From positions 9,613 to 73,612 of IMG/VR virus record IMGVR_UViG_3300027082_000001: a DNA stretch of 64,000 nucleotides; one strand, given 5' to 3'. Under the pieces are notes generated by a model, which was given only the letters and a program-made list of their open reading frames with translations, searched no databases and had not been told where the DNA came from. The stretch is from a virus. Below are positions 8,570 to 64,000 of the stretch, piece by piece (within the stretch, counting starts at the first letter, position 1; each line of letters starts with the position of its first letter). A program made the translations under genes and the position numbers.

Positions 8570-8624
8570 CTCTTCTCTCTTGGTTTCGACCAAGTCAACT
8601 CATGAACCAAAAGAAGGACAAACC

Positions 8625-10577: not shown

Positions 10578-10578
10578 T

Positions 10579-10734: not shown

Positions 10735-10753
10735 AGGGGTCGCTCCCCTGACC
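10731..10753. terminator. GC-rich hairpin between convergent transcription units
   Basis: GGTCAGGGG-tcgct-CCCCTGACC perfect 9-bp stem next to the vRNAP stop; no clear U-tract. Confidence 0.6.
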
Positions 10754-10759
10754 CCCCTG

Positions 10760-13700
10760 TTACCTATTCATCAGATTGTACCACGGGTTGAGTTCTGGTG
10801 CGTTAAACATCATTCCAAGACCCGTGGCATAACCCAATCGGTTCTCACCAATCACAGTGAAAATGTTGTCTCCAACCGGAGAACCGACATCTAATGCTGA
10901 GTTCACAGCCAGAGCACGTACTGGATTGTCCCGAAGCTGCTGCATCGCAATCTTCGTGATCCGCAGTTTGAAGGCCATGAACCACAGCATACCATACCCT
11001 TCCAAAGCGGAACGACTACGACCCGGAAGAACACTGTAGTTGACGAATTCTTCGTTCATCTGAGTCAGTGCCTTATCCTCGCTAAGTCCCTGTTCAATCA
11101 GGTGGTCGTAATAGATAGACTTAGCCAAGAAGTCCCCATACTGAGTGGCACGGTTTGCCACATGATAGATCTGCGTGGACTTCGACACCAATCCCACTCC
11201 AGCAAGATCACCGGCTTTTGGATGCACTTTGTTTGCCATGGCTTCCATGTACTCACCAATACGACCAGAAGACACTTCAACATCCATCTCCGTGAGACCT
11301 TCAACAAGCTGTTTGTACGCACCCGCAGCCAGCACAGGAGCGATGCTCATTTTCTGGTTCAGGTCTTCAAGCACCTTGATCTTGTCATCAATGATCTGAC
11401 GCTGCTTGTCGTTCCGAGCCAGAAGCATCTTCTTGGCATCCAGTTCGATGATCTTCGTCCGGTTCTTGTTGTACTCCTCAACTTCAGCCAGTTTCCGACG
11501 GAAGCTCTTCTGAATAGTTTTCACAGGCACACCACGAGAAGCCAACTGAACGATATTGGCCTGAAGGTTCACACTCGGAACCACAAGAGACCTAATCAAA
11601 ATCCAGTCTTTAGCTGTAGACACAGTATCTTGCAGAATCTCCTCACCACCTGTGAGAATACGCATGGCCTTGGTCCCAAGGAAACGCTCACTGACACCTT
11701 TCACAGTCGCTTGGAGAGCCTTGGGCAATCGAGTCTTCCCAGACCACATATCGGCCAGTGAGAACTCCCTGTAGCCTACTGAGAGGTTCACCATCGACTT
11801 AGGGACCATGACACCATCATCACCAAACAAATTCTCCATGTAGAGCTTGGTAGACTGAGGGATGAGGCTCCATGAGTCTTTGTAGATTGGATCGTCTGTT
11901 TTACTCAAATCAATGAAAGTGGCTTCTTCGCCTGCTTCTCGGTTGTCCCAGATATTCTTCAGTTCGTCAGCCAACTGTTTATTGTACTGATCTGCCAGAC
12001 TTTCTTCCACCTGACGACCCTGCCAAGCACCAAGCATCACAGCAAGGTTTTCATCACGACCCATGTGAGTGTCGATCATCTCTTGAGAGATAGACCGCTC
12101 GAAACCAATGATGTCACCATCAGGACCGAAAACAGGCATCAGGGCTTCTTGATCATTTTCCAGTTCCACAGACTCATCCAGTTGGTTCTCCATGATCCGT
12201 TGAATCGCACCATCTTCACCAGAGATGAAACCAGCAGTATCACCTGTCACAGTCAGTCCCGTGTTCACATCCACACCACGATAAGTCATAGCCACGTTCT
12301 GGACCACACCCTGAGAATAGATACCCTGACGACGGACAGTGGACACATAGTAGGACCGAGGAAAGATCGAATCAGTCTCCCCAGTGTACGAAATATTCAG
12401 CTTCTTGTAGCCTTTCCGTTCCATATCTCCTTCAGCCTCATCCAGAGCCACAGTGATGTGTACGTTCTTGGCTCCCTCGTTCGGGATGTAGCCTTTGTAT
12501 CCATTCAGACGGGCTTGCTCCGAGATGTCTTTGGCTTCTTCAGCCTCATTCAACTGTTGCAAATATGCCACAATCCCAAGGATCCCAACGGGATCTTCCT
12601 GCCACAGACGAACAGTTTCTTCCCGAGTCTGCGAATCCATCTTGTCCACAGCTTCAAGAGTGATCCACCGATCCAGCAGATCAATCGTAGCCTGATCCAC
12701 ATCACCTTCGAGGTTCTTCCCGATGGCATAAGCATTGCGAACCAAGAGTTTACCGACAGACTGTCCATTCATATAGGCAGCCAGTTGACGACCTTTTTCA
12801 ATGGCAGCTTGGAAGTTCGAACCAGACAGAGATTGCTGAAGCTGGGTTTCGATACGCTGCATTTCAGCATGACGAGCACCAGACTCTTCCATGAAACGCA
12901 TGGATCCCTTCATATTCTCCAGATCCACCATGCGAGAGAAGTCAGTCTTGGCCAGAGTCTGGAACATCGAAGTCCATTGTTCCTTAGTCGGAGCCTCTTT
13001 GAAGGACCGATCCAAGATCACCGGAAGATCTTGCCGGAATGCCTGACGCATACCCGACACAGAAGCGTTCACACGGTCGAGAAGAGCCACAACATTTTTA
13101 TTCTGAGCATCAGTCCCTACCATCTCCGACACCAGTTCCCGAATAGGAACCAAGGAAAGGAAGGGGATACCCATGTGAGTGACACGCTTGGCAGCCTTGT
13201 TCGTCAGATCAGTACCCGGCTTGTCCAGATAGTTAGTTGCGAACGTAGCAGCAGCCACAAGGTATTTCTGAGTATCCGAACGAATCGAAGCCTGCACCTC
13301 ACGGTTCTTGGCACGCATCAAATCAGCCGACTGGGTGAATTTCCCAGACACATACTCATCAGCAGCAGTAAGAGTTTCCGTGGCTTTCTTCAGTACACGA
13401 AATTCACGCTCCACATCATGATCAATAATTGTACCAGCCACAGTTGCTAGAACATCTGCCGGAACCTTATTGGTTTCCATCGACCCAGTAAGTTTCTGCA
13501 TCGTAAATGCAGCAGTCTTGGTCAGAAAATCATTTAGAGATCCATCACCAACCGGACCACTTTCCGGAGCAGGGATTTGATCCAGAGCATTCCGGAATTT
13601 CTCAGAGGTCTGGCTCAATGCGAAGAGTACAGCCACAGCATGACTCGGTTCTTTGGACTCACGAAGAGCATTCAGAACAGCAGAGTAGGTGTTACCTGCT

Positions 13701-16700
13701 TCTGAATCTGTGCCAAACATTTCAGGAGAGAGGTTGTCTTCGATGTGACCAAAGATCTTTGTCAGACCGATCAAAGCATTGCTGTTCAGTTTCATGTCAG
13801 ACAACACAATACCGTAGATCGCTTTGAAAGTGGCTTTGTCCTTGTTGTTCCGCAGCATTCCAGCTTGACGCAGGTTTTCCAAAACACGTTTAGCACGAGC
13901 TAGATCTAGAGAGGTTTTCATGAGTTTCGGATCTTGCGTCTCCGCAAGTCCTGCCATGTAGTCCTTGATGTTCTGGATCCAATAGTTCGTGAATTCACCA
14001 AACGGACCAGACGATTCCGAAGGACCACCATCTCCACCGTCATCTCCACCAGAACCATTGCCACCATTATCCACAGGAGTCGCGTTCAAAACACGAGTAT
14101 TGAACACCACCTGCGAGAACATATCAGAAGGGACACCACCCATCACACGACGAAGCAACTGGATTACCTTGTTTTTCATCGAAGCAAGGATATTGGCTTG
14201 CGTACCTTCTAGCTTCTGACGGACCTGAGAAGACGACAAAGCATAAGCCATGAACTCATTGAGAGCATTGGCATTTGCTACAGGAGTGTTCTTCACCAGA
14301 CGACGGTTGATGGCTGCCTGTGCTTCTCGGATCTTTTTCTCACCGTCCAGTTCCATGAACTGCGCCATAAGAGCTTCAAGTCGTTCCACAGCAGGGTTGG
14401 TCTCACCTTTATAGTGGGCCAGAACCTTGTTGTAGGTTGCAGCATGAACCATCTCATGAAGCAGGGTTTCACCCGTAGCAGTGGTCATGAAGACGATATC
14501 GTTTGCTGCATCGTACTGGCCTTTGGCTTTCAACACGACACCATCTTGAGCAACGTGCTCACCACGCCACTTATTCAGTTGATCAAGCGTACCAAAGACC
14601 ACACGAGTCTCACCCATGAGAGGTTTCAAGATCCCCACAACCTTCTTCTGAGCTTCAGTCCACCGAGTATTTTCCAGCACAGCTTTGCCCGTCAGAACAC
14701 GAACAGGAGTTTTCACTTGCTCTTGAGCATCAGGATCACGACCTTCCATCTCACGTTCGATTCGTTGGTTCACAGTATGAAAGTCCCATTCATGACCATC
14801 ACGAGTGAATCCCACATCAGAACCACCCATCTGATCGACAGACACAGCCATCTGTTTCATGACTTTCTTACGAGCACGGTTTTCTCGAAGACGACGCTGC
14901 ATCTGCTCCAGAAGATCTGCCGCATTGGAAGTCTGGACAGTCTCTTTTTTGAAGTCTCCAATGACTTCAGATTCTGCTTCTTGCAAGAGATCCGGATCCG
15001 AAATGGAATTAAGGAAACCTTCAAAATTCATAATTGGCATAGCCAGAACATCACGATCCCAAGACTTCAGAACCTGTTGATTCACATAAGGAGCATATTG
15101 TTTGATTTTGCCAACAGGAACGTCCACCCCATCATGAATTCCCAACACATCATTTGGTGCGTCTTTTGAACCAAAGATGAGATTCATCATCATCGCATCA
15201 CCCGTACCAATAACAATGTATGGAATAGCTTTGACTCCAACATCATCAGGACGACGCATTCTTGCAGGCTGTTTAAGCCTTTCATTGAAATTGCTAGAAA
15301 ACTTGAATGTTGTCAGTTTCTTTTGGAAACCACCAATAGCAAGAGTCTGATCATCAGACACAAATATTGGTCCTAGTTGGCTAAGTTCCTCTTCCAATTT
15401 TTTCCATTCTGCACGAGGAATTTGCCCATGAATTGGAACACCTTTCTTGTTTCGACCAATTTTACCTTCATTGGCCAGATGTTCTGCCAGTTGTTCGACA
15501 CGACGATCAAAGAGTTTCTGAAGATAACGATTCTGAATGTTGGTCGATAGGACCAGCATATCATTCAGTTCCTGAATACGATTACCCAGTACTTCACGAG
15601 TCGAGTCGGTTAGAACACGACCAATGGTGAACATGATCGACTTTCGGAAATTCTCCACTTGCTCTTTTGGAAAGACGAAATTTTCATCATATTCTTGAGG
15701 CAGTTTCAGACCCATGGTTGCCATGTCCTGCTCGAAGCCAGCATAAAACACATCATCTATAGTTGTTTCTTCAGTGAGAGTCTGAAGCTTTTCATAAAAT
15801 GCCAGCAGCATGTCATCTGCCACACCAATAGCAACACCCATCACACCTGAACCATAATTGACTTTGGTTACAGGATTTTTGGCTGTTTCTCTGGTCATTT
15901 TGTAAGTGTAAGTTCCGTCAGAGTTTTTCACAATCTCGAAATTACCAATAGATGCAGCCAAACGCTGTGCAGCAGCACGCTGTTCTTTTTGCCATGGTTT
16001 CAGACGATGACCACCCAAAGCCATCATTCGATCACCAACCTTACTCACGGTTTGGTAGAGATCGACATTTGTCTTATCTTTGAAATAGTCATTTAAGGTC
16101 ATTCCTTTTTTACCAAGGTAAAGACCCACACGCTTCAGATTCTCCCATTCATCTGGAGTAAACAAACCATGACCAAAGTTCACCATCATATTGGCTGCAC
16201 CATTGGTTTTACCATCCATCTCAAAGCTCTGAGACATACGAAATTCAGATTCACCATTCTCTTTGGCAATTTCCATAGAAGCAACAGATTCAATTGCACC
16301 CAATACTTCCGGATCAACTATTCCCACAACAGTTGCGAAAGCATCTGCATCAAACGAACCTTCTTCCAATAGTTCTTTTATCATGACCACAGCAGGACCA
16401 AAATCCTCTGCAAAGTCTTCTTGAATGTTTTTAATATGAGCTTCTTGATCAATCATCTCTGGTTTTATCAAACCAGTTGCTTGTCCAACACCTAACCAGA
16501 ACTCATCCATATCATTTTTAGAAGCAAAGCTAAGTGTATTCCACGTCGGAGTGGCAAGCATACGAAGCAGCTTGTTTGTCTGAGCATTTGGTCCTTGGTG
16601 GTGATGTCTACCTCCTTTAGAGATAGCAATAGGGTAGTAAATAGGTTGAGACACATCTCCTTCTAGAGACCCAACCAAATTCACCACATCTCGAATGTTC

Positions 16701-19700
16701 TTATCAATAGAAGCATTTTTTCCGATAGCAGATTTTCGAAGAATGACATGAGTCATATTTTCAGCATCAGGAATCCAACCAAGCATACGCATTAGAGGAC
16801 CGTCTCCCAAAGCTTCCAATAGTTTAAGACGAGCTTCATTTACATAATGAGGAATGTTTTGTTCTTGCTTTATAGCATTACGCTCAAGCTCAGACAAAGA
16901 TACATTTCCTCTGTCTTGATAAGAAGGAACGTGTTTGATCTTCTTACCAATTGAATACATCTCACGTTTTTCATTGAAAACTTTTTCACGAACTGTGTTT
17001 GGCACACCTTTTTGAGTACTCGAACGAATACGATCCTGAAGCTCTTTAAGTCGTGTTGTATTCACTTTAATAGAATCTGCAAAAGCAGTTTCTGTTACAG
17101 TAGATTTTTCTCCTGTATCTGGATTTATCACATCATAAGTGTATTGCTCTTTACTTTCGATTTTCAAAAATTCTACGATCTTCATTTTTTGCAAAGCAGT
17201 CAAAAGTTCTGCTGCAAAACCTTGAGCAATGCCTTGAAGATCTGCTTCAGCAGATTGCTCATTAGGTTTCAAGTTCATCAGACGAATAAAATCATCTGCA
17301 AGCTGGTCTTTAAGCTGACTCACTGGCACACTGTTAAGAATGTTTTTCAACATACTTTCATCAATTTCATTGATAGTTGTGCCAAGATCCTCAAGTGTAT
17401 CATCCAACTTATTGGGATCAATTGGATTTGCAGTTGCAATGAAATCTGTAATTACAATTGCAGCCATATCCATAATACGGTTGTCATATTGCTTTGTCTC
17501 AGGGTTTACAAACGTACCTGCTTGAAACTGAGTAAACTGAACCAGACCATCTTTGATAAAATCAATTACTCTCTTGTATCGACCACCGTTTCGTACATGT
17601 TCTTTGAGACGTTTATTCATAGTTTCTGCCAATTCAGGCAAAAGCTCACGAACTACAGAAACATGTTCCGGATTGAATTCAGCATTCTCCAGATCAGAAA
17701 TACTGTTCAGAGGAGCTTCAGTCTTACGAGTCTCATAGTGCTCATCCAGCATAGGATGAGTGACCACCGGGGTTGTTCCAGTGGTTTCACCCAAACCAGC
17801 TTCATTGTTGATTTCAACAACACCAGTATTGTAGATTTTACGACCAGTTTGGTATTGCTCTTCTAGCCACATTTGACGACCAGCAGCATCATCTATACCA
17901 ACGCGATTGATGTACTCCTCAGCAAATTGAAGCCATTTGGAATATAGATTCCTAGATCTTTCAGAATATCCTCGTTTTTTACTCCATTCGAGAGTATTTT
18001 CTGGTTTCACATTATCTGGGTAATTCCCACCATGAAATTCATCCGCAGACGTTTGCAAGGCCAAGTAATCGTATACCGTTTCTAGGTCAGCATCAGACAG
18101 ATTTTCTGGATTTCTATTCAAAAGATTTACAGGTACTTCCGGGACGTGTGTTTCCAAACGATATAGGCCATTTGGAATCTCTGAAGCATTTCCATCATAG
18201 AGTGGATAATCTTTTATTTCGGGGAAGGTTGATCCTTCAGCGGTATCTCCTCCGTCGGAGGTACTGGTGTCTTCGGTATCGGTTCCCAATTCCTCACCCG
18301 TCGTAGTCGCGTCCGTCGCTGTCGCTCCGGTCTCGTCTACTCCGTTCTCGGAATCGCTCACCTCTTCGTCAGCCGTTGGGTTTTCACCTAACAACTGATC
18401 AATAAGTTGAATTTTTCGACTCTGTGGAATTTGATCCCAACTACGTTTTGCAGCTTTTTCAATTGTATTATCTGATAGATTGGGAAATGCTTCAGAAAGT
18501 TCACCTTCTTTTCGTTCTTGAGACAGGTTTTCCCAAATTTCTTTTGCTTGTGTTTCTCGATCTTGATCAGAATTCTTTTCATTATTCGCTATGAACAAAG
18601 AAACATTAGGATCCCATTCCTTATTTTGAATACGATCTTGTGCAATGTCTTCCAAAAGATGAACATTATAATTTTCATCAGAATTAGGATAAATACCTGC
18701 ATTATCCATTGCTTTACGTTCTTTATTTGTAAGTTGAGAACGGTTTAGATCACCCTCTCTAGCAAGCATAAGTACACGTTGAGGAATTTTTGAATAATCT
18801 ACATCCTCGCTGGTGCTCGTCGCTTCCTCCCCTTTGGGGTCGGAAGACTCCTCGACACCCGTTGGTTGCTCGGATTCATTTACAGTATCAGCAGGTGTCA
18901 AAGACACAGGTTCAATTGCAGGCATATTTTCGAAGGTCTCAGGAAATTCTTTCCGGAGAGTGTTGTACACTTCGATCAGATCATTCTGGTCCTGTGCAAC
19001 CTGTTGCGCAAATGCAACACTATTGGGGTTGTCCGGAGAGTAAAATACTCCCCGAAGGTTGTTTGAACCAAGGGAAGAGCTTTGAAACTTGCCATTCACC
19101 AACCCTTCATAGTCTTTTTTGACTCCTTCACGGAGACCTTTCTTATTGGTAAAGCTCTCAGCAACAGAATCGTTCAATGCCTGCACTTTGTTCTTCATGT
19201 GCTGGGCAAAGTTACTCATTTGTTGAGTAACTTGTCGAACAGGAACTACCTCTCCTTTTTGGTTGATGACTGTAGCATCTGCGGGATAGGCACCTGTCTG
19301 TTCCCCGGATTGCACAGCACTCAGGATGTCCCGTGCGAAGTCATTGATGGACCGGTATTTGGCCTTTAGGTCATTGTCGGTCTTTCCTTCAGCGTGAATT
19401 TGCCGTGAAACTCCTTCCACAGTAAGATCACGTTTCTTCGGACGGGACGCCTGAGTGAGATTGATGTTCTCATTGGTCCGGATTTCCACCTGTTTCTCAA
19501 GGTTCCGGTTCACAATACGACCGATCTTTGAAGCCACACGCACATAACGTGCTTCTTCCGGAGTGAGATCTTCACCCGACTCTTCAAGAATCTTGTCAGC
19601 CACATCTGGATTGACGTTGGCTGGATTGGTTTTCGCCACATTCACAGTGGTGGTGACATCTGCTTCTTCCGGGTTACGGTTCAGATCAAGTTTCTCAGCC

Positions 19701-21643
19701 TTGGCAGAGACATCCTTAGCCACTTTGGATGCCAAAATCCGACCAGCCTTTGTCCGAAGATCCTTCGGGAGAGAACCAACCACAGAACGAAGTTTCTGGT
19801 ATTGAGCAGCAGCATATGCTGTGTCAGCATTTGAAGCTCGGAACTTCCGAGATCCCATCTTGGCAGTGATCCCAATGATGTTGTCCATCAGAGAGTTGTT
19901 ACCACCAGCCACGTCAGTAAAGCTGGCAGACGGAGTATCTGTATCAGGCTGTGATACGATCTTAGAGACCGTATCTTCAAGCTGACCTGTTTCGACAGCT
20001 TCACGCAAACCTTCGGTAATGTTCACCGCAGCTTTCACAGACTGAGTGACTTCTTTGGATGAAGGACGATTCGCATACTCCTGAACCTGTTCAGAGACTC
20101 GTCCACCCACCTCAAAAGCCCGTGTACGAGCTTTGTTGACCATAGGGGCCACACGGTCCACGACAGGCTTGATAGCAGGCCCAGCGGCTTCAGCAGCCGT
20201 ACGCAGACCTTCTCCGACAGTTCGGGCTGCATTACGAGCACGAGAATCACCAACAATATCCTGACGAGTAGAGTCATTGTAAGTGGTTTCATTAAAGAGT
20301 GCATCGGCTGCACTGCGAGCAGTATTCGCCCCAGCACGAACAGTACCTACAGTAGTGGCAGGAGCACTCATAACACCTGCCATTCCTGCACCTGCGATCA
20401 AACCAGTCGCAAATTCTTCAGGAGCATTTTCAAAAGTATTTCGATTAGGATCTACTTCTTCTTGAATTGCCAAATTACTTGTAACAGTTCCACTGAGTCC
20501 TTGAAGACTTTCTTCTCCAGCCTGAGAAGCAACTGTACGAGTAGATTTAACCAATCCATTACCTACAAAAGAACCAATTGGAGCAGCCTCAAAACGACCA
20601 CCAACAACACCAATACCAGTAGCCATTGGAAAGGACATTTTAAATGACTGCCACCCAGCATCGGCTGCCAACATTTGTTTAGCTTCTTCAGATGTATGAT
20701 TTTCCAGTAAATTTTGATACTGAACTGATGTCTCCATAAGTTGATCATGAGACATATTCAGAATTTCATTGACAGTTTGTGAATACACACCAGACGCTTC
20801 GCTAACACCAACAGAAGCTGCAATTGCTGATTTTTCTACAGCTTTGGCACCGCGTTCAATTAAACGAGTTCCACGAGTCGGATTTATGGCATTAGCAAGA
20901 ATTGCTGCCTTAAATGTGTTTGTACCTGTGACTGCTTGAGAGGCAACCCCAGCAAGTTTGGCACTCGGTCCAAGAGAGCCAATACCTTGAGCAACAACAT
21001 CACCAGCTATAGCAGGATCAGAAGCCAACCGTTCTAGATTATTAAGAGTGCCTCGACCAAACCAACTCAATTCATCAATAAATGAAGAGTCTTTTCCATT
21101 ATCCGTATCATTATTGTATTGAGCCACATTGTCAGCAGCATCAAGTTCTGCTTCAATCAGCGAAAGCTCACGACGATCTTTGAATTCATCAGTATAAAAC
21201 TGATCCAACCAACTAACAGCGTCTTCTGTTTTCTTTGAAGTGATAGTGGCAAGATCTGAAAATCCTGTATTTTCAGGATCAAAATATTCATCAACTTTAC
21301 CAGCACCAGCAAAAAGCAAAGAACCTAAAGAACCAACAGTGTTAGAAAACCCAGACGCCACCCCAATCGCAGTATCATCTAAAATTTCACCATTTTGTCT
21401 TTTTTGTTTTTCAATCCGGTCTACCTCATTTGAGGTGTAATACTGACCCATGGAAGCAAGATAACCTTCATCTCCGTACTTAGCACGAATCTCCAAGTCG
21501 TTCATCGACCGCATGTCTTGAATCAGTTCATCTTCGTTTCCGGTATTCCGGTTTCGAGAGACTGCGACTTGTTTTTGGAATTTGGGATCCCAAAGACGTT
21601 GAGCGATCAATTCGGCTGCAAGAGTTTCGTCGCGTTCAGACAT
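10760..21643 (-). CDS. virion-encapsidated RNA polymerase (N4 vRNAP, gp50-like)
   Basis: 3627 aa; T7-family motifs SKGGRH, A: EMDGKTNG, B: RETAKNPVTKVNYGS, C: IHDG; no Cys seen by eye, as in N4 vRNAP. Confidence 0.97.
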   Translation of the reverse strand: MSERDETLAAELIAQRLWDPKFQKQVAVSRNRNTGNEDELIQDMRSMNDLEIRAKYGDEGYLASMGQYYTSNEVDRIEKQKRQNGEILDDTAIGVASGFSNTVGSLGSLLFAGAGKVDEYFDPENTGFSDLATITSKKTEDAVSWLDQFYTDEFKDRRELSLIEAELDAADNVAQYNNDTDNGKDSSFIDELSWFGRGTLNNLERLASDPAIAGDVVAQGIGSLGPSAKLAGVASQAVTGTNTFKAAILANAINPTRGTRLIERGAKAVEKSAIAASVGVSEASGVYSQTVNEILNMSHDQLMETSVQYQNLLENHTSEEAKQMLAADAGWQSFKMSFPMATGIGVVGGRFEAAPIGSFVGNGLVKSTRTVASQAGEESLQGLSGTVTSNLAIQEEVDPNRNTFENAPEEFATGLIAGAGMAGVMSAPATTVGTVRAGANTARSAADALFNETTYNDSTRQDIVGDSRARNAARTVGEGLRTAAEAAGPAIKPVVDRVAPMVNKARTRAFEVGGRVSEQVQEYANRPSSKEVTQSVKAAVNITEGLREAVETGQLEDTVSKIVSQPDTDTPSASFTDVAGGNNSLMDNIIGITAKMGSRKFRASNADTAYAAAQYQKLRSVVGSLPKDLRTKAGRILASKVAKDVSAKAEKLDLNRNPEEADVTTTVNVAKTNPANVNPDVADKILEESGEDLTPEEARYVRVASKIGRIVNRNLEKQVEIRTNENINLTQASRPKKRDLTVEGVSRQIHAEGKTDNDLKAKYRSINDFARDILSAVQSGEQTGAYPADATVINQKGEVVPVRQVTQQMSNFAQHMKNKVQALNDSVAESFTNKKGLREGVKKDYEGLVNGKFQSSSLGSNNLRGVFYSPDNPNSVAFAQQVAQDQNDLIEVYNTLRKEFPETFENMPAIEPVSLTPADTVNESEQPTGVEESSDPKGEEATSTSEDVDYSKIPQRVLMLAREGDLNRSQLTNKERKAMDNAGIYPNSDENYNVHLLEDIAQDRIQNKEWDPNVSLFIANNEKNSDQDRETQAKEIWENLSQERKEGELSEAFPNLSDNTIEKAAKRSWDQIPQSRKIQLIDQLLGENPTADEEVSDSENGVDETGATATDATTTGEELGTDTEDTSTSDGGDTAEGSTFPEIKDYPLYDGNASEIPNGLYRLETHVPEVPVNLLNRNPENLSDADLETVYDYLALQTSADEFHGGNYPDNVKPENTLEWSKKRGYSERSRNLYSKWLQFAEEYINRVGIDDAAGRQMWLEEQYQTGRKIYNTGVVEINNEAGLGETTGTTPVVTHPMLDEHYETRKTEAPLNSISDLENAEFNPEHVSVVRELLPELAETMNKRLKEHVRNGGRYKRVIDFIKDGLVQFTQFQAGTFVNPETKQYDNRIMDMAAIVITDFIATANPIDPNKLDDTLEDLGTTINEIDESMLKNILNSVPVSQLKDQLADDFIRLMNLKPNEQSAEADLQGIAQGFAAELLTALQKMKIVEFLKIESKEQYTYDVINPDTGEKSTVTETAFADSIKVNTTRLKELQDRIRSSTQKGVPNTVREKVFNEKREMYSIGKKIKHVPSYQDRGNVSLSELERNAIKQEQNIPHYVNEARLKLLEALGDGPLMRMLGWIPDAENMTHVILRKSAIGKNASIDKNIRDVVNLVGSLEGDVSQPIYYPIAISKGGRHHHQGPNAQTNKLLRMLATPTWNTLSFASKNDMDEFWLGVGQATGLIKPEMIDQEAHIKNIQEDFAEDFGPAVVMIKELLEEGSFDADAFATVVGIVDPEVLGAIESVASMEIAKENGESEFRMSQSFEMDGKTNGAANMMVNFGHGLFTPDEWENLKRVGLYLGKKGMTLNDYFKDKTNVDLYQTVSKVGDRMMALGGHRLKPWQKEQRAAAQRLAASIGNFEIVKNSDGTYTYKMTRETAKNPVTKVNYGSGVMGVAIGVADDMLLAFYEKLQTLTEETTIDDVFYAGFEQDMATMGLKLPQEYDENFVFPKEQVENFRKSIMFTIGRVLTDSTREVLGNRIQELNDMLVLSTNIQNRYLQKLFDRRVEQLAEHLANEGKIGRNKKGVPIHGQIPRAEWKKLEEELSQLGPIFVSDDQTLAIGGFQKKLTTFKFSSNFNERLKQPARMRRPDDVGVKAIPYIVIGTGDAMMMNLIFGSKDAPNDVLGIHDGVDVPVGKIKQYAPYVNQQVLKSWDRDVLAMPIMNFEGFLNSISDPDLLQEAESEVIGDFKKETVQTSNAADLLEQMQRRLRENRARKKVMKQMAVSVDQMGGSDVGFTRDGHEWDFHTVNQRIEREMEGRDPDAQEQVKTPVRVLTGKAVLENTRWTEAQKKVVGILKPLMGETRVVFGTLDQLNKWRGEHVAQDGVVLKAKGQYDAANDIVFMTTATGETLLHEMVHAATYNKVLAHYKGETNPAVERLEALMAQFMELDGEKKIREAQAAINRRLVKNTPVANANALNEFMAYALSSSQVRQKLEGTQANILASMKNKVIQLLRRVMGGVPSDMFSQVVFNTRVLNATPVDNGGNGSGGDDGGDGGPSESSGPFGEFTNYWIQNIKDYMAGLAETQDPKLMKTSLDLARAKRVLENLRQAGMLRNNKDKATFKAIYGIVLSDMKLNSNALIGLTKIFGHIEDNLSPEMFGTDSEAGNTYSAVLNALRESKEPSHAVAVLFALSQTSEKFRNALDQIPAPESGPVGDGSLNDFLTKTAAFTMQKLTGSMETNKVPADVLATVAGTIIDHDVEREFRVLKKATETLTAADEYVSGKFTQSADLMRAKNREVQASIRSDTQKYLVAAATFATNYLDKPGTDLTNKAAKRVTHMGIPFLSLVPIRELVSEMVGTDAQNKNVVALLDRVNASVSGMRQAFRQDLPVILDRSFKEAPTKEQWTSMFQTLAKTDFSRMVDLENMKGSMRFMEESGARHAEMQRIETQLQQSLSGSNFQAAIEKGRQLAAYMNGQSVGKLLVRNAYAIGKNLEGDVDQATIDLLDRWITLEAVDKMDSQTREETVRLWQEDPVGILGIVAYLQQLNEAEEAKDISEQARLNGYKGYIPNEGAKNVHITVALDEAEGDMERKGYKKLNISYTGETDSIFPRSYYVSTVRRQGIYSQGVVQNVAMTYRGVDVNTGLTVTGDTAGFISGEDGAIQRIMENQLDESVELENDQEALMPVFGPDGDIIGFERSISQEMIDTHMGRDENLAVMLGAWQGRQVEESLADQYNKQLADELKNIWDNREAGEEATFIDLSKTDDPIYKDSWSLIPQSTKLYMENLFGDDGVMVPKSMVNLSVGYREFSLADMWSGKTRLPKALQATVKGVSERFLGTKAMRILTGGEEILQDTVSTAKDWILIRSLVVPSVNLQANIVQLASRGVPVKTIQKSFRRKLAEVEEYNKNRTKIIELDAKKMLLARNDKQRQIIDDKIKVLEDLNQKMSIAPVLAAGAYKQLVEGLTEMDVEVSSGRIGEYMEAMANKVHPKAGDLAGVGLVSKSTQIYHVANRATQYGDFLAKSIYYDHLIEQGLSEDKALTQMNEEFVNYSVLPGRSRSALEGYGMLWFMAFKLRITKIAMQQLRDNPVRALAVNSALDVGSPVGDNIFTVIGENRLGYATGLGMMFNAPELNPWYNLMNR

Positions 21644-58796: not shown

Positions 58797-59285
58797 ATGA
58801 TCCTCAATCGTGACAGTCTACTCAAAGCCGCACCCATTGAAGGCATGTGCCAATCGAAAAAGAAATTTGCTGGGTACAGTTACGGCATGTCTGAAGCTGG
58901 CTATGACATCCGCATCAAACAGAAGATAGTTTTCGACAATCGCCAAGGTCGAAATATCGTCTGGGTAGATGATGTTCCCAGTTCTGGCTCTTTTTGTTTG
59001 GCTTCGGCCATTGAACGGTTCCAGATGCCCACCAACCTCACAGGTATTGTCCATGACAAATCTACGTGGGCCAGACAGGGTCTCTCCGTTTTCAACACGG
59101 TCATCGAACCGGGATGGCACGGTTGGCTTACATTGGAGCTTGCCTTCAAAGGGCAAGGACTTCTGGAGATTCCTGCTGGTGTGGGGATTGCTCAAGTAGT
59201 TTTCCATCTCACTTCTGATCATGCTCAGTACGATGGAAAATACCAAAACCAAGAAGACAAACCGCAGGAGGCAAAACTGCAATAA
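58797..59285 (+). CDS. dcd: dCTP deaminase / trimeric dUTPase family
   Basis: GYDIR, DKSTWARQG, NTVIEPGWHGWLTLE, IAQ, YDGKYQNQ. Confidence 0.88.
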   Translation: MILNRDSLLKAAPIEGMCQSKKKFAGYSYGMSEAGYDIRIKQKIVFDNRQGRNIVWVDDVPSSGSFCLASAIERFQMPTNLTGIVHDKSTWARQGLSVFNTVIEPGWHGWLTLELAFKGQGLLEIPAGVGIAQVVFHLTSDHAQYDGKYQNQEDKPQEAKLQ

Positions 59286-59299
59286 CAAGGGAGGCGACC

Positions 59300-59458
59300 A
59301 TGCTGTTTTGGCTATGGTACATCATCTGGATTGAATCCCACTGTTCCACTCAGAAGAAGCCTTTGTCTCAGCTTCTTCGTCATGTAGGCTTCGATACGTT
59401 AATCCGTCGAGTTCTGGACTCGATCTGGATCCCGGAGAAGCCACCGGGAATAGTGTGA
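59300..59458 (+). CDS. small Trp-rich ORF (52 aa), possible leader peptide
   Basis: GGGAGG RBS; MLFWLWYIIWIE; runs into a structured region. Confidence 0.4.
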   Translation: MLFWLWYIIWIESHCSTQKKPLSQLLRHVGFDTLIRRVLDSIWIPEKPPGIV

Positions 59459-59530
59459 AGAGACATATAAGCGAAAGTCGTTAAGAGCGGCAGACAGGCT
59501 TGACCTGACGAGGGGGTGAAAGTCCCCCAC
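59372..59530 (+). ncRNA. candidate structured RNA / leader element
   Basis: Four to five adjacent hairpins plus a long-range alternative pairing, directly before an AAGGAGG RBS. Confidence 0.35.
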
Positions 59531-59543
59531 CAAGGAGGATCCG

Positions 59544-59831
59544 ATGACCCAACGTCTATACTGTGTCTGGAGGGTAGATGGAGAGTTCTCCATTACAGAC
59601 ATTGATGTGTCTTTCCGAGACGAAGACTTCGACACTATCATCACAGAAGCTATCCGTCAGGATGCTGATGATATGGGGATGTCTGCTTTCCATAATCTGG
59701 AAGACAAGGAAAACCACATCAACAACCTCATCGCAATTGCAACTGACCCTAATGATCCGTACTTCATGGGTTATGAAATGCCGATGGTCATTGTTGCAAA
59801 CCCTGAAACCATTGAATTCATTGGAGCTTAA
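59544..59831 (+). CDS. hypothetical acidic protein
   Basis: AAGGAGG RBS; 95 aa. Confidence 0.75.
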   Translation: MTQRLYCVWRVDGEFSITDIDVSFRDEDFDTIITEAIRQDADDMGMSAFHNLEDKENHINNLIAIATDPNDPYFMGYEMPMVIVANPETIEFIGA

Positions 59832-59832
59832 A

Positions 59833-60291
59833 ATGACCAAAGCCAAGACCAATCTGACTTCTGTTATCACCACAGAAGAATCTCCCAGCTACAAACGGAA
59901 ACGTATGAAAGAAGTCCGAACGATGGTTGCTAGTGCTCACAAGCAGGGCAAGCGTATCGACCAGATGGACTTCGAAGGCACTGACATTCCTCGTGCCATG
60001 ATTGCTCTGCAAGATCTTCTCACGAAGACTCAGGAGCGTCATCGCAAAGCCACTCAGCACATCGCATTTGTCAAGCAGATGGATGAGTTCTTTGCTGCTA
60101 TTATGGATGAAGCCACAGCTTCAATCATGGAACAGCAAGCCCATATCGGTGAACTGTCTTCGGCTCTCTACGACGAACGTAGGAGTCATGCGGAGACTGC
60201 GACAATGCTGCATCAGATGTACAGCGAGAGGCTCGATGTGCAGCAAGATCTGGACGCTGTAAAACGGTCCATGAAGGTTCTGAATGGCTGA
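59833..60291 (+). CDS. coiled-coil hypothetical protein
   Basis: GGAG RBS before ATG 59833; helical heptads. Confidence 0.75.
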   Translation: MTKAKTNLTSVITTEESPSYKRKRMKEVRTMVASAHKQGKRIDQMDFEGTDIPRAMIALQDLLTKTQERHRKATQHIAFVKQMDEFFAAIMDEATASIMEQQAHIGELSSALYDERRSHAETATMLHQMYSERLDVQQDLDAVKRSMKVLNG

Positions 60292-60721
60292 GTGGGGTCA
60301 AATAGCCACGGGTGCTCAACGGCAATCTATCGGAACCAAGATTGACACTGATTTGGTTCCGTTTGAGTTGCAGGTTGCAGCCGCTGTGGGCCTTGGCCTC
60401 GGTGAGTATAAATATGCTGCCCGTAACTTTGAGAAGGGGCTGAGTTATCGCTCCCTGATCAATTCCATCGAACGACACTGCAAAGCTCTGAAAGACGGGG
60501 AAGAATTGGATCCGGATACGAAAATCCCTCATTACATGCTGATCGCTTCGTCTACTGCTATGCTCGTTCACAATATCATGCAAGGTGTCATCATTGACGA
60601 CCGTGCTGTTCCTAAGACTTCGAATTTGGATGTCGGTCAACTGGCTGAACTGGGACAGACAGAACTCGCCAAAGCAATTGCCTTTTGGCAAAACAAGCAG
60701 GAGAAAATGCCAGATGAATAA
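60284..60721 (+). CDS. dATP/dGTP diphosphohydrolase-like protein (DUF5664)
   Basis: DLVP...GEYKYAARNFEKG...S-x2-RH...DPDT-x2-PH pattern. Confidence 0.8.
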   Translation: MAEWGQIATGAQRQSIGTKIDTDLVPFELQVAAAVGLGLGEYKYAARNFEKGLSYRSLINSIERHCKALKDGEELDPDTKIPHYMLIASSTAMLVHNIMQGVIIDDRAVPKTSNLDVGQLAELGQTELAKAIAFWQNKQEKMPDE

Positions 60722-61661
60722 CGTCGTATATTCGCATCCGGGACAGCCTCAGATGCAAGTGGAGGTCATCTTGGCCTCTGCTGCCAATGGCTGTCCACAC
60801 ATTTATACCATCAGGATGCGATACCCGCGTCCGATTCATGGTGAGATCATGACCCATCGGGTCTTTGGTCGAAATGCGCGTTCTTCTCGTGCTGTACCTG
60901 TCCGAACCATGCTCAATGAGGTTCGAAATATTCCTTACGTGCCTTGGCATTGGGGTAAGAACCAAAAGGGAATGCAAGCTGACGAAGAATGTAACGAACC
61001 TACCCTCATCACCGATTACTTCCGGGATGACGAGCAGGCATTCACTCGCCTTATGACGGTCGAAATGTCTCGTGAAGAAGCATGGCTTCATGCTCGTGAT
61101 GTAGCTGCTGACGTAGCCGAAGCCTTCATGGACGCTGGCTACCACAAGCAGAACCCCAATCGTCTATTGGAACCGTTCTCGTGGATCGACACACTGATTA
61201 CAGCAACCCAGTGGGACAACTTCCTCTGGCTCCGTCAGCATCATGCTGCTGAACCGCATCTTCAAGATCTAGCAAACCTCGTGGCACAAGCCATTGCACA
61301 TGCTGATGTTCAGAATCTGACGTTAGGGGAATGGCACTTGCCATACATCACTGATGTCGAAAAGACACAGTATCACTCTGATGTGCTGCTGAAGATCTCT
61401 GCTGCTCGGTGTGCTCGGATCTCTTACAAACCTTTCAATGGTGATGGGTCCATTATTGCTGAATTGCAGCGTGCAGATCTGCTCATGAATGATGAACGTG
61501 TTCATGCTTCACCATTTGAACATCAAGCCAAACCTGATGAAAGAATCAGATACTCCACTTCTGGTAATCCGGAAGGATGGCAGTCTGAACACCTCCATGG
61601 CAATCTTACAGGATGGATTCAGCACCGAAAGCTGATCCCGAATGAAGTTTACCACGGATAG
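60714..61661 (+). CDS. thyX: FAD-dependent thymidylate synthase
   Basis: THRVFGRNARSSRAVP, HKQNPNRLLEPF, SAARCARISY, HASPFEHQA. Confidence 0.9.
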   Translation: MNNVVYSHPGQPQMQVEVILASAANGCPHIYTIRMRYPRPIHGEIMTHRVFGRNARSSRAVPVRTMLNEVRNIPYVPWHWGKNQKGMQADEECNEPTLITDYFRDDEQAFTRLMTVEMSREEAWLHARDVAADVAEAFMDAGYHKQNPNRLLEPFSWIDTLITATQWDNFLWLRQHHAAEPHLQDLANLVAQAIAHADVQNLTLGEWHLPYITDVEKTQYHSDVLLKISAARCARISYKPFNGDGSIIAELQRADLLMNDERVHASPFEHQAKPDERIRYSTSGNPEGWQSEHLHGNLTGWIQHRKLIPNEVYHG

Positions 61662-61708
61662 TCAGCATGATAGGGAGTCCCTACCTTAGCCAAGAAGGGA
61701 CTCCCACC

Positions 61709-62866
61709 ATGAGCAAATACTATGACTATTGGTCCCAGAATGGACAGCCAACTTATCAAATTGTAGCTGACTACTTTGGAGTCAATGAATCTACTGCACG
61801 ACGATCTATCCAAACCAAACTCCAAAAACTCCAAAGTCGTTCCGAAGCAGAACCAGCAGTTATTGCTGGGATGGACACTCTAGGGTTTGAAGGACAACCC
61901 CACTCTGGATGGATCAAGTCTGAAACACCAGATGCGAATGGAAACACCTATTCGTATTACTTCCTTAACAAAGAGGAAGAGAAGACCGAAGAAGAACGAA
62001 TGCAAGCCATTGCAGACAAGTTCACCGGCATACCTCCTGTTTTATTCAAACCACCAGCTTACAAGCTCACTCCTCGAACCAAGAAAGCCTTTATCTCCAT
62101 CAACGATCTCCATTCAGGTGCTCTCGCATGGGGTGCGGAAACTGGATACGGAGACTGGGATCTTCAGATCGCCATGACCCGTCTACATGACTGGCTTTGC
62201 CGTCTGTTCGACCATGTAGACAAGGAAAATGTCCAAGAGATTATCCTGTACTACAATGGTGACGTTCTTCACGCCAATGGTCAGGTGCCAATGACTGCCA
62301 CTCACGGATCGGATCATATTCTTGATATTGATTCTCGGCACTTCAAAGTGGTTGATATCACAGGAGAACAAATCATCCATACCACTGATATCGCTGCACA
62401 AATTTCTGATGTCCGTCTAGTCATCAAAAGAGGAAACCATGATGGAGACAGTTATCTGTCACTTCTTCAGGGTGCCAAGTGGCGGTATCACAACCAACCA
62501 AATGTCAATGTCGAAATGAATCCCAATGCCTATTGGGCACACATCTTTAGCAAAGTGGCAATCTTCGGTCATCATGGTGACAAAATAAAACCTGATCGCC
62601 TCGTCATGCAGTTTCTTCAGAGGTATCGCAAAGACTTAGCCGAAGTCGAACACATCACCGTCTGGACAGGGGACAAGCACCATCGTAAGGTCGAGCAGTT
62701 CCCCGGAGTGATGTGGGAGCAAGCCTCTAATTGGTCTGAGCCTGATCTTTATGGTTCAGCCTACGGAGAAACAGCGATGGCTCAAGCAGTCATCTATGAT
62801 GAACTCGAAGGAGAGGTATCTCGCTTCACAGTGAAAGCCTCTTCAGTATTTGGAGAAACCTCATGA
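61709..62866 (+). CDS. calcineurin-like metallophosphoesterase with N-terminal HTH
   Basis: NDLH, GDVLH, GNHD, HHGD, GDKHH; N-terminal YQIVADYFGVNESTARR HTH. Confidence 0.85.
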   Translation: MSKYYDYWSQNGQPTYQIVADYFGVNESTARRSIQTKLQKLQSRSEAEPAVIAGMDTLGFEGQPHSGWIKSETPDANGNTYSYYFLNKEEEKTEEERMQAIADKFTGIPPVLFKPPAYKLTPRTKKAFISINDLHSGALAWGAETGYGDWDLQIAMTRLHDWLCRLFDHVDKENVQEIILYYNGDVLHANGQVPMTATHGSDHILDIDSRHFKVVDITGEQIIHTTDIAAQISDVRLVIKRGNHDGDSYLSLLQGAKWRYHNQPNVNVEMNPNAYWAHIFSKVAIFGHHGDKIKPDRLVMQFLQRYRKDLAEVEHITVWTGDKHHRKVEQFPGVMWEQASNWSEPDLYGSAYGETAMAQAVIYDELEGEVSRFTVKASSVFGETS

Positions 62867-63096
62867 CCTTTTCTTTCTCACGAGCACTGGAGATCCTTAA
62901 AACAGGCTCTGGTCGAGTTGCTCGTCAAGGATGGAATGGTAAGGGTATGTGGCTGGAGCTTCAGGTTCCTAATGACCACAGCAAAATGACCTTGCCGTAC
63001 ATCTACATGAACACTGCTGATAAACATCAAGTCCCATGGCTCGCAAGCCAGACTGATCTGTTGGCTGAAGACTGGGAGATAGTATCCAATGGATGA
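62863..63096 (+). CDS. DUF2829 protein, Tad2 (Thoeris anti-defence 2) family
   Basis: FSRALEILK, VARQGWNGKGMW, LPYIYM, VPWLASQTDLLAEDW. Confidence 0.85.
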   Translation: MTFSFSRALEILKTGSGRVARQGWNGKGMWLELQVPNDHSKMTLPYIYMNTADKHQVPWLASQTDLLAEDWEIVSNG

Positions 63097-63301
63097 AACC
63101 AAAGTGAACAGCCTTTTTCGGTACGAGCATCTGCCTCCTCACCTTCAGGAAGCCTCGAAACCATTTCACGACCTTGCCATGCAACTGGTCAAGACACTGC
63201 CTAAGTCAGCAGAACTGACTCTTGCACTTCGCTCCCTCTGGGAAGCCAAGAATTTGGCAGTATTCGCAACCGTTGAAGCAAAGGAGGTGCAAAATGTTTG
63301 A
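63089..63301 (+). CDS. helical-hairpin protein, possibly Acb2/Tad1-like
   Basis: FRYEHLPPHLQ...F-x2-LA...LP-x-SAELTLALRSLWEAK; the function call is tentative. Confidence 0.7.
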   Translation: MDETKVNSLFRYEHLPPHLQEASKPFHDLAMQLVKTLPKSAELTLALRSLWEAKNLAVFATVEAKEVQNV

Positions 63302-63398
63302 ACTCGTACTGGGGGTAGGAATCGGTCTTGTGGTCGGCTGGAATGTCTTTCCCCAACCGCAATGGGTCCAAAACCTTTACTCCCGCTGGTTCAGCTAG
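63294..63398 (+). CDS. small membrane protein (34 aa)
   Basis: AAGGAGGT RBS; MFELVLGVGIGLVVGWNVFPQPQWV. Confidence 0.7.
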   Translation: MFELVLGVGIGLVVGWNVFPQPQWVQNLYSRWFS

Positions 63399-63453
63399 GG
63401 AGGAGGTGATCCATATCTCCCTTGATTCATAGAAATCATGTGGTAAAGCATTG

Positions 63454-63487
63454 CCCTGCCCCAAAAATGGGGCAGGGTTTCTTTTTC
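63454..63487 (+). terminator. intrinsic terminator
   Basis: CCCTGCCCCA-aaaa-TGGGGCAGGG followed by TTTCTTTTT. Confidence 0.85.
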
Positions 63488-63762
63488 GGAGTGTGGGAAA
63501 AGTAGTAATACGTCGGGCTGAGAATCAAAAGAAAGACTTGCACTACGCAGTAGATATCCAAGATCATCCCTTGAGGTATCTACACCTTTCTGGCACGAAG
63601 CTGACTACAGATAAGACCTATGCTTGGTATGGAACCAAACAACAATTTGTCAATCTGTGTCGAATTCATGAATGGGACGGTTTGTGTCTCATAAATCGCC
63701 CAAAATGAAACACAAACCACTTTGTCTTTCGTGGGTGTATCACAAACCAGAAAGGAAACTGA

Positions 63763-64000
63763 ATGTTTACCCAACAACTCCCCGCTGCTGTCTTTGAGAA
63801 ACAGCGGGAATTCATCGCTGCGATGGATGCTAACCGTGACTTCGTATGGTGGGCTGATAGCCTGATCGCTGAAGAAACCAAGGAACTGATGCAAGCTTAT
63901 GAAGCCAAAGAACTCAGTGATGAGAACATGGCTCATATCTTCAAAGAACTGGGTGATGTGATCTACGTTGTGGCTGGTTTCTACAACACCATGCCAGTCT
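63763..64000 (+). CDS. MazG-like NTP pyrophosphohydrolase (3'-truncated)
   Basis: AAAGGA RBS; LIAEETKEL...KELGDVIYV (ExxE...ExxD); runs off the window and is absent from the ORF track. Confidence 0.8.
   Translation, partial: MFTQQLPAAVFEKQREFIAAMDANRDFVWWADSLIAEETKELMQAYEAKELSDENMAHIFKELGDVIYVVAGFYNTMPV

Follow-up and report, generated by a model that had tools for sequence, protein, structure and literature searches.

A short-form Tad2-like gene and an unnamed helical-hairpin gene in a candidate signal-sponge cassette of an N4-like marine roseophage

Signal sponges are one of the main routes by which phages get past Thoeris, CBASS, and Pycsar defences, and little attention has so far been given to them in marine roseophages; no literature on Thoeris or CBASS in Roseobacter was found. 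Sponges of the Tad2 family are homotetramers, built as dimers of dimers with two pockets, and Acb2 is an interlocked hexamer. Among the closest described systems is the SPO1 phage protein Tad2. As described in the preprint of Yirmiya et al., its contacts to gcADPR and water are made by W25, N26, I63, T65, D67, H71, W73, S76, T78, and D79, the ligand is held by the Trp-Asn and W..S.TD residues, and helix alpha2, which lies in the beta2-beta3 segment, takes part in the dimer interface. HgmTad2 binds cGG and cGAMP through a long beta2-beta5 insertion of about 41 residues (Li et al. preprint). Tad2 homologues differ in specificity, with 3'cADPR, His-ADPR, N7-cADPR, and cUMP among the ligands reported (Hadary et al. 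preprint), and the exact ligand is therefore not readable from the family name. In Acb2, the dinucleotide pocket is lined by Y11 and K26 (PMC10312549), and Y11/L14 are described as taking part in dinucleotide binding (Hadary et al. preprint). Furthermore, N4-related phages carry a hotspot between the primase-polymerase and virion RNA polymerase genes in which Tad2, Tad3, Acb4, and Sequestin are found (Fedorova et al. 2026 preprint). The present analysis concerns a window of 64,000 nucleotides, bases 9613-73612 of the IMG/VR virus record IMGVR_UViG_3300027082_000001 (73,612 bp, estimated 99% complete), and within it four overlapping genes at 61709-63398, which form a plausible sponge cassette. 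The direct evidence consists of gene structure, Tad2 family membership, pocket conservation, a fold model of the hairpin protein, remote-homology statistics, and the variability of the slot in which the genes lie. The chance that the sponge cassette is the full best explanation of the locus is about even. The features of the locus are as follows.

61709..62866, plus strand: helix-turn-helix (HTH) metallophosphoesterase, 385 amino acids (aa); phrog_704, E 3.2e-94; precedes the variable slot.
62863..63096, plus strand: short-form Tad2-like (DUF2829) protein, 77 aa; PF11195, E 1.2e-24; phrog_1048, E 6.3e-26.
63089..63301, plus strand: helical-hairpin protein, 70 aa; phrog_1761, E 5.1e-31.
63294..63398, plus strand: hydrophobic microprotein, 34 aa; phrog_20849, E 8.7e-23.
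63453..63488, plus strand: intrinsic terminator ending the transcription unit; located by the scan at 63453-63478; 11-pair stem with 8 G-C pairs, 4-nt loop, and T-run.

The product of the second gene was assigned to DUF2829/Tad2 by a first-pass annotation made from the letters alone, and this assignment was borne out. In addition to the PF11195 E-value given above, the match reaches 87 bits against a cut-off of 25 and spans residues 4-74. Seven distinct solved Tad2/AcrIIA7 sequences, including SptTad2, SPO1 gp34.65, HgmTad2/AcrIIA7, and ModTad2, are matched at E 2.9e-13 to 2.7e-11. The residues of the gcADPR pocket are largely intact. When the SPO1 contacts were mapped via the HMMER alignment to 8sme_A, with the numbering offset by one, they fell in order on W24, N25, M49, T51, D53, V57, W59, S62, T64, and D65. 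Eight of these ten are identical; M49 is a conservative substitute for I63, and a Val (V57) takes the place of H71. Moreover, W24, N25, W59, S62, T64, and D65 are invariant across 15 short-form Tad2 homologues. The likeness to SPO1 gp34.65 extends over the whole protein, which aligns with five solved Tad2 homologues, with the Trp-Asn of loop beta1-beta2 and the C-terminal W..S.TD kept. The differences are in length (77 aa versus 89-104 aa), in the H71 position, and in the segment between the two aligned blocks, which is about 11 residues long (query 35-45) as against 24 in SPO1 Tad2 and 41 in HgmTad2. As this insertion is nearly absent, the cyclic-dinucleotide site of the HgmTad2 type, and with it the cGG/cGAMP site of SptTad2/HgmTad2, should be missing. 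Binding of cyclic dinucleotides, which the first-pass annotation had noted for some members of the family, is thus unlikely for this protein. Relatives are encoded in 329 records of the phage collection, the best being that of an N4-like Acinetobacter phage (68%), followed by that of Mycobacterium phage MalagasyRose (56%). The Tad2-like protein is probably a working sponge of the cADPR type.

The 70-aa product of the third gene belongs to a large family that has so far gone without a name. A Pfam scan of this protein gave nothing at E <= 1, including PF24729 and PF21825, and NCBIfam gave no match for any of the four cassette proteins. By exhaustive phmmer search, 2487 representative clusters at 50% identity match the hairpin at E <= 1e-3, and tblastn locates it in 279 phage records (Vibrio 99, Erwinia 48, Acinetobacter 45, Gordonia 24, and others including Mycobacterium). 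In Vibrio, Acinetobacter, and Gordonia phages, homologues lie inside head/neck modules, a moron-like position comparable to that occupied by acb2 of JBD67. Nine genes that adjoin hairpin homologues in phages of Vibrio, Acinetobacter, and Erwinia were scanned with Pfam, together with one ORF (open reading frame) from the variable slot of a related locus (L095), and no known anti-defence domain was found. The domain is also found in larger proteins: it is duplicated in tandem within P0063, P0067, and P0074, and it follows a P-loop-like N-terminal domain in Erwinia jumbo phages (P0062). Among ten long fused forms, the Pfam scan identified only a Clp_N fusion (P0155). Further fused or duplicated homologues are P0165 and P0097. 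Sequestin was considered as an identity for the 70-aa hairpin and ruled out, as there is no PF21825 match; Sequestin, Lockin, and Acb5 were likewise rejected for the hairpin or the phosphoesterase, given the missing PF21825 match and the fact that Acb5 is not a metallophosphoesterase.

An AF2 model of the hairpin, built with 87 sequences, has a pLDDT of 96.8 and consists of a short helix, a motif loop, and two long antiparallel helices. The N-terminal loop carries F-x-Y-x-H-L-P, and the full motif reads F-x-Y-x-H-L-P-P-H-L-Q..S-K-P-F. Across the family (n=87), F10, Y12 (72/87), H14, S23, R48, E52, and K54 are conserved, and position K24 is Lys in 54 and Arg in 12 of the 87 sequences. The multimer prediction that the first-pass annotation had suggested for this protein returned a homodimer with an ipSAE of 0.70, the best of three controls scoring 0.00. 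Among 30 homodimers of solved structure, 20 attain the same ipSAE mark, as does 1 among 23 proteins whose structures were solved as single chains. Contacts agree to at least 97% between runs, and the pLDDT of the partner is at least 86. The predicted dimer is symmetric, with an interface made up of helix 2 and part of helix 1, and the N-terminal motif lies outside it. These results support a homodimeric hairpin, as far as such models go.

A relationship of the hairpin to the Acb2/Tad1 hairpin domain (PF24729; DUF7681 of NCBI), which the CBASS/Thoeris sponges Acb2 and Tad1 contain, emerges from profile comparison. In hhalign, the 87-sequence hairpin family aligned with 65 non-redundant PF24729-type ORFs of IMG/VR at E 2.3e-5 and a probability of 76%, over 59 co-linear columns; the control values were 0.17 for the reversed profile and 0.023 for the best of 30 column shuffles. 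With nine PF24729 proteins in place of the 65 ORFs, the E-value was 0.0013. Conversely, 8 PF24729-type ORFs match the hidden Markov model of the hairpin family at 3.8e-4. The family phrog_1454 is matched by the 70-aa hairpin (E 0.006), by its Erwinia homologue (0.0014), and by PF24729 proteins (about 1e-29). Additionally, PF24729 is carried by 18%, 14%, and 51% of the members of the three nearest ESM-Atlas clusters, and among the 50 BFVD fold matches listed, 14 bear the name 'Acb2/Tad1 hairpin domain-containing', the highest of them at rank 6 (E 0.025, TM 0.65). The likeness also covers the two long antiparallel helices that follow an N-terminal segment with a conserved aromatic residue, the predicted dimer as the basic unit, and the moron-like placement. 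Moreover, the conserved Y12-x-x-L15 of the hairpin resembles Y11/L14 of Acb2, but the spacing of its Tyr and Lys (Y12-K24) is 12 residues versus 15 in Acb2, and no alignment reliably pairs these residues with those of Acb2. The differences are that the hairpin has 70 aa as against about 94-108 aa, is without the extra C-terminal helix region, and has a conserved motif of its own.

The characterised clade of Acb2 (PaMx33, JBD67, and T4 Vs.4) has no detectable similarity to the hairpin, by profile or PDB searches at the thresholds used. In hhalign, the hairpin family gave E 0.6 against JBD67 Acb2 alone and nothing significant against MalagasyRose gp5 alone. The profile of the 65 PF24729-type ORFs likewise fails to detect that of JBD67-type Acb2 (E 0.081), and the Pfam family PF24729 covers both JBD67 Acb2 (E 3.4e-16) and MalagasyRose gp5 (E 2.4e-22). 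As the hairpin is linked to the PF24729 type only and not to the Acb2 clade, its link to proven sponges takes two steps. The hairpin would be distantly related to the Acb2/Tad1 hairpin domain, with support that is real but indirect. When the first-pass annotation proposed the 70-aa protein as a second sponge, it had in mind a small helical hairpin such as Acb2 and Tad1. The hairpin model, the dimer, and the PF24729 profile link agree with that proposal, whereas a direct link to characterised Acb2 was not obtained. The hairpin is a credible candidate for a second sponge, at somewhat less than an even chance.

The genes downstream of the phosphoesterase vary among related phages. In two isolated roseophages, EE36phi1 and DSS3phi2, the hairpin gene comes straight after the phosphoesterase gene and overlaps it, and an unannotated ORF for a 37-aa microprotein and a terminator follow; no Tad2 gene is found at the locus in either phage. 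As the Tad2-like gene is absent from the isolated relatives examined, it is read as an acquired gene. Among 23 IMG/VR loci with a relative of the phosphoesterase, 6 have the hairpin and microprotein genes immediately downstream and 17 are without the hairpin. In the six hairpin-bearing loci, the identity of the phosphoesterase is at least 77% throughout, and the Tad2-like gene is present only in L093 (1/6). Loci with a phosphoesterase identity of 69% or less have neither hairpin nor microprotein. In L095, a more distant N4-like contig and the only one of these loci whose slot was read, the position after the phosphoesterase is filled by an unrelated 203-aa ORF without Pfam match (3668-4279), a candidate accessory gene. 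Between the window and L093, identity is 93.5% for the Tad2-like protein and 94.3% for the hairpin, compared with 80.6% for the phosphoesterase and 73% for the microprotein. The two central genes, being more alike than their flanks, are therefore read as exchanged together as a unit, which suggests, on these sequence identities, that the Tad2-like and hairpin genes travel together.

A comparable pairing occurs in Mycobacterium phage MalagasyRose (L009, 707-1509), where gp4, a 71-aa Tad2-like protein, overlaps the start of gp5, a protein of 195 aa that matches PF24729 (E 2.4e-22). The gp5 protein has an extra C-terminal domain (phrog_2864), and the gp4-gp5 pair lies ahead of the terminase, at the left end of the genome. 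In a survey of 80 IMG/VR loci that have a short Tad2-like gene, a hairpin of the PF24729 type lies within about 200 bp in 5 (L013-L015, L086, and, weakly, L047), of which L013-L015 look like one phage. The 70-aa hairpin type adjoins the Tad2-like gene in one of the same 80 loci, the close relative L010. Searching from the other side, a Tad2-like neighbour was present in 1 of 80 loci of PF24729-type hairpins and in 2 of 80 loci of JBD67-type Acb2, the latter two being near-identical. In Mycobacterium phage Pharaoh (L116, 183-1295), a PF24729-type hairpin stands directly after the thymidylate synthase and ribonucleotide reductase genes, an arrangement reminiscent of the nucleotide-metabolism genes near the roseophage hairpin.

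The first gene of the cassette encodes an enzyme of a widespread kind. Its match to Pfam Metallophos is below the threshold (E 0.035, 15 bits, cut-off 21.5 bits). The residues D133, H135, D185, H188, N243, H244, H288, H289, and H324 are invariant in 48 sequences and correspond to the five canonical metal motifs of metallophosphoesterases. These five motifs and the metallophosphoesterase sandwich fold place the protein in the calcineurin-like metallophosphoesterase superfamily. The AF2 model has a pLDDT of 80. At the N-terminus there are three or four helices with weak HTH matches, and relatives carry clear precomputed HTH Pfam families. Foldseek returned 233 PDB matches at E <= 0.001, and all 50 of those listed have the metallophosphoesterase fold, with low TM-scores to solved members (0.26-0.42 among the matches listed). 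PolD DP1 exonuclease, purple acid phosphatase, Mre11/SbcD, the B subunits of Pol delta/zeta, Rv0805, and Vps29 are interleaved among them, and the scores of Mre11 chains do not exceed those of purple acid phosphatase, PolD DP1, or Rv0805. Given these interleaved matches of low TM-score, the fold separates neither nuclease from cyclic-nucleotide phosphodiesterase nor any subfamily from another. Compared with the PHROG 704 'DNA repair exonuclease', Mre11/SbcD, PolD DP1, and Rv0805, the phosphoesterase shares the five metal motifs and the sandwich fold. It differs in the N-terminal HTH and a small beta-hairpin linker, and no SbcC/Rad50-like partner gene adjoins it in the window.

The phosphoesterase family is present in 1972 phage records, mostly of T1-like and Jersey-like siphoviruses. 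In two such contexts that were read, genes for DNA methylase, polynucleotide kinase, and dNMP (deoxynucleoside monophosphate) kinase adjoin, with no sponge gene. For instance, in the T1-like Klebsiella phage vB_Kpn_1KM2 (L091, 3465-5700), the homologue overlaps the polynucleotide kinase gene and the dNMP kinase gene is next, which hints at a role of the family in nucleic-acid end-healing or nucleotide salvage.

The first-pass annotation had combined the genes into a sequester-and-destroy operon, in which the phosphoesterase hydrolyses immune nucleotide signals that the Tad2-like and hairpin proteins sequester. The sequestering half gains support, from family membership and pocket for the Tad2-like protein and indirectly for the hairpin; the destroying half found no such backing. 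Overlap and co-transcription with the sponge genes would suit a signal-degrading enzyme, but the hairpin does not follow the phosphoesterase in 17 of the 23 IMG/VR loci, it does so only in a narrow roseophage clade, and another ORF occupies the slot in L095. All five metal motifs are intact and one of the fold matches, at rank 10 (E 4e-6), is Rv0805, a cyclic-nucleotide phosphodiesterase, yet the fold is generic, and nucleases such as the PolD DP1 exonuclease and Mre11/SbcD match it equally well or better. The N-terminal HTH, of a DNA-binding type, points to a nucleic-acid target, and most of the 1972 records are without sponge neighbours, the methylase and kinase contexts described above being the two that were read. 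Phages do degrade signals with other enzyme folds, Acb1 and Acb5 being described in PMC12265669; Acb5, the newest signal-cleaving enzyme, is not a metallophosphoesterase, and the counter-defence phage metallophosphoesterase described in PMC12287305 damages DNA and not signals. Destruction of immune signals by this enzyme is highly improbable. The same example raises another explanation by analogy, namely that the phosphoesterase serves counter-defence by damaging host DNA early and thereby silencing defence genes, as is reported for Gp48 of mycobacteriophage A10ZJ24. Gp48, also a metallophosphoesterase, has phosphodiesterase activity and disrupts the DNA of the host (PMC12287305), and the HTH domain and nuclease-like fold matches would fit such a role; the dCTP deaminase, MazG-like, and ThyX neighbours, however, fit nucleotide salvage or DNA processing equally well, and the analogy is improbable as an account of this gene. 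The HTH, the methylase/kinase neighbourhoods of the family, and the restriction of downstream sponge genes to one roseophage clade argue for a nucleic-acid-directed enzyme. Most likely, the phosphoesterase acts on DNA or on nucleic-acid ends within the replication/nucleotide module, and a partnership with the sponges is improbable. Caution in annotation is called for, as there is so far support neither for the label 'DNA repair exonuclease' nor for a signal-degrading function.

Several findings weigh against reading the two small proteins as a pair of sponges. The Pfam model of PF24729 matches just 1 of the 87 hairpin relatives at E <= 0.01 (E 0.0033), and against a 62-sequence profile of JBD67-type Acb2 the hairpin family gives no signal in hhalign (E 0.41). 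In the PDB, sequence and profile searches with the hairpin returned only chance matches or designed helical repeats and no Acb2/Tad1, while Foldseek gave 0 matches at E <= 0.001 and no sponge in the best 50 of 283. Small helical hairpins are, moreover, a common fold, and many of them bind proteins and not nucleotides. Adjacency of Tad2-like and hairpin genes is rare (6/80, 1/80, and 2/80 in the three surveys above), and several of the loci concerned are near-duplicates. In the Tad2-like protein, H71 of SPO1 Tad2 is a Val, and with the shortened beta2-beta3 segment the tetramer could differ or fail to form. On such grounds, the hairpin might be a small protein-binding factor, possibly acting with the 34-aa membrane peptide, which would leave the Tad2-like protein as the only anti-defence product. 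None of the searches run tied the hairpin to validated Acb2 or to a sponge of solved structure, and the relatives under DUF7681 in Pfam are mostly functionally uncharacterised; set against this is the remote PF24729 homology with its clean controls. The fusion of the domain to partners as varied as Clp_N (P0155) and the P-loop-like N-terminus of Erwinia phages would suit protein binding, but the N-terminal loop holds a conserved aromatic/His/Lys cluster off the predicted dimer interface, and this cluster resembles the placing of Y11 and K26 in Acb2 (PMC10312549). Likewise, the gene is clade-conserved in roseophages and tied to the membrane microprotein (23 records), which is less like a freely exchanged sponge, whereas the repeated adjacency to Tad2-like genes and the moron-like placement shared with acb2 argue the other way. 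A protein-binding role is possible, though on the unlikely side. The pairing with Tad2-like genes, infrequent as it is, yet recurs in unrelated lineages and fits the known clustering of anti-defence genes. The Tad2-like protein may itself have diverged from a sponge role, for example to the anti-CRISPR activity once ascribed to AcrIIA7, with the short beta2-beta3 segment blocking the tetramer. The insertion of about 11 residues (24 in SPO1 Tad2, 41 in HgmTad2), the contribution of helix alpha2 of that segment to the dimer interface of SPO1 Tad2 (Yirmiya et al. preprint), and the Val in place of H71 would be in keeping with this. The pocket residues, however, are conserved and invariant in 15 short-form homologues, which implies that the pocket is under selection. 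According to the preprint of Li et al., gcADPR binding is predicted to be non-functional in about 1% of Tad2 proteins, and that of Yirmiya et al. makes the case that the role of DUF2829 proteins is anti-Thoeris and not anti-CRISPR. Loss of the sponge role has little probability.

The layout of the genes agrees in part with the operon described in the first-pass annotation. The four plus-strand genes overlap by 4, 8, and 8 nt (ATGA, ATGGATGA, and ATGTTTGA), and all four ORFs match phage protein families (PHROG), each at E 1e-23 or better, and are therefore taken as real genes. The frame of the first gene opens at 61667 or 61709 and ends at 62866; the ATG at 61709, which gives 385 aa, is the start used by the EE36phi1 orthologue. 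The ATG of the fourth gene lies at 63294 and its end at 63398, nested in a longer frame at 63222-63398. The number of terminator-like sites in the region is not itself enriched (6 versus 4.6 +/- 2.3 in shuffles), and the site at 63453-63478 is by far the strongest of the scan. EE36phi1 has a G+C-rich hairpin with a T-run at the equivalent position, as read by eye. The four overlapping genes and their strong terminator were thus confirmed, and a self-contained operon was not: the gene for ThyX ends at 61661, leaving a gap of 47 bp to 61709, and no strong terminator was found in a plus-strand scan of 59083-63453. Given this short gap and the lack of a strong upstream terminator, the four genes form the tail of a longer nucleotide-metabolism transcription unit. 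Upstream of the cassette lie genes for a vWA (von Willebrand factor A) protein, dCTP deaminase, dATP/dGTP diphosphohydrolase, and ThyX. Nucleotide pyrophosphohydrolase genes stand on both sides, namely the dATP/dGTP diphosphohydrolase at 60284-60721 (PF18909, E 2e-21) and a MazG-like ORF at 63763-63999 that is cut by the record end. Together with dCTP deaminase and ThyX, these two make up a dense cluster for remodelling the deoxynucleoside triphosphate pool.

The microprotein encoded by the fourth gene has a hydrophobic N-terminal half, with a maximum Kyte-Doolittle mean of 2.15 over 15 residues, and its ATG is preceded by AAGGAGG, a strong Shine-Dalgarno sequence. By tblastn it occurs in 23 phage records, all of N4-like roseophages, and it lies directly 3' of the hairpin gene at every locus read (EE36phi1 and six IMG/VR loci). 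From these features it is probably a single-pass or membrane-associated peptide that is translationally coupled to the hairpin gene. In A5/A8 mycobacteriophages, PF24729 ORFs are described as paired with an ORF of 29-36 aa (2026 preprint on phage D29). A scan of 80 IMG/VR loci for small hydrophobic ORFs downstream of PF24729-type hairpins yielded mostly out-of-frame noise in high-GC DNA, the exception being one group of five near-identical loci with a 41-aa hydrophobic ORF. As the scan gave mostly noise, a general rule of hairpin plus micropeptide is not established. The strongly hydrophobic 41-aa ORF at 1737-1862 of L153-L158, which follows a PF24729-type hairpin, recalls both the roseophage pair and the D29 cassette.

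The phage that carries the cassette is, by sequence comparison, an N4-like marine roseophage, of the Schitoviridae and Rhodovirinae-like. At 59000-64000, the window has 74-78% DNA identity to N4-like roseophages (EE36phi1, DSS3phi2, DFL12phi1, and Roseovarius Plymouth podovirus), and a minus-strand ORF of 3627 aa at 10760-21643 has the size of an N4-type virion RNA polymerase. The primase-polymerase lies at 5627-7810 (PriCT_1). The region that matches the published hotspot, 7829-10791, holds a RecA-like AAA_24 gene and three ORFs (297, 316, and 109 aa) without Pfam match, and the Pfam scan of this region detected no known sponge. The cassette resembles the N4-like hotspot (Migulavirinae Ab09 gp59-61) in that small genes of sponge families adjoin each other in a variable slot, with Tad2 among the genes listed there. 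It differs in its position, about 40 kb away and after ThyX and the phosphoesterase. As the cassette lies outside the published hotspot, its slot would give this lineage a second site of gene acquisition.

Taken together, the sponge cassette is proposed to occupy a variable accessory slot between the conserved HTH-metallophosphoesterase gene and the terminator, at the 3' end of a middle-gene operon for nucleotide metabolism. The short-form Tad2-like protein would most likely oligomerise and sequester ADPR-derived signals made by TIR proteins, of the gcADPR/3'cADPR type, and this sequestration would blunt Thoeris-like defence. The 70-aa hairpin, as a symmetric dimer formed via its second helix, would most likely be a second sponge for nucleotide signals, drawn from a large family, as yet unannotated, that is sister to the Acb2/Tad1 hairpin domain, and the 34-aa hydrophobic peptide would be co-translated with it. 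Beyond the predicted dimer, oligomer states, all ligand binding, and any effect on defence are what we infer. A more far-reaching joint reading can be drawn, although it is unlikely to hold in full. According to it, the hairpin would represent a branch of the superfamily without a Pfam name (at least 2487 clusters) and act as a dimer-based sponge for a nucleotide signal, immune or other, beyond those of known sponges, the Tad2-hairpin pair would be a mobile unit, the locus would be a second N4-like hotspot, and the peptide would be an anchor or regulator. Its mobile-unit part rests on the identity of 93-94% versus 73-81% in the flanks between two roseophages, and on the same pairing in a mycobacteriophage. 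The hairpin family and the short Tad2 clade might already be listed in the tables of the Hadary et al. preprint or of PMC12265669.

The main value of the locus lies in the large unnamed hairpin family and in the apparent two-gene unit of Tad2-like and hairpin genes, the systems themselves being of known kinds. The short-form Tad2, if confirmed, would show how small a Tad2 architecture can be and still bind gcADPR. Should the 70-aa family prove to bind a nucleotide, the known sponges would be joined by thousands of small phage proteins that are now without annotation, perhaps with a new ligand. Furthermore, the locus indicates another variable slot of N4-like genomes, the second of its kind, in which anti-defence genes may be sought.

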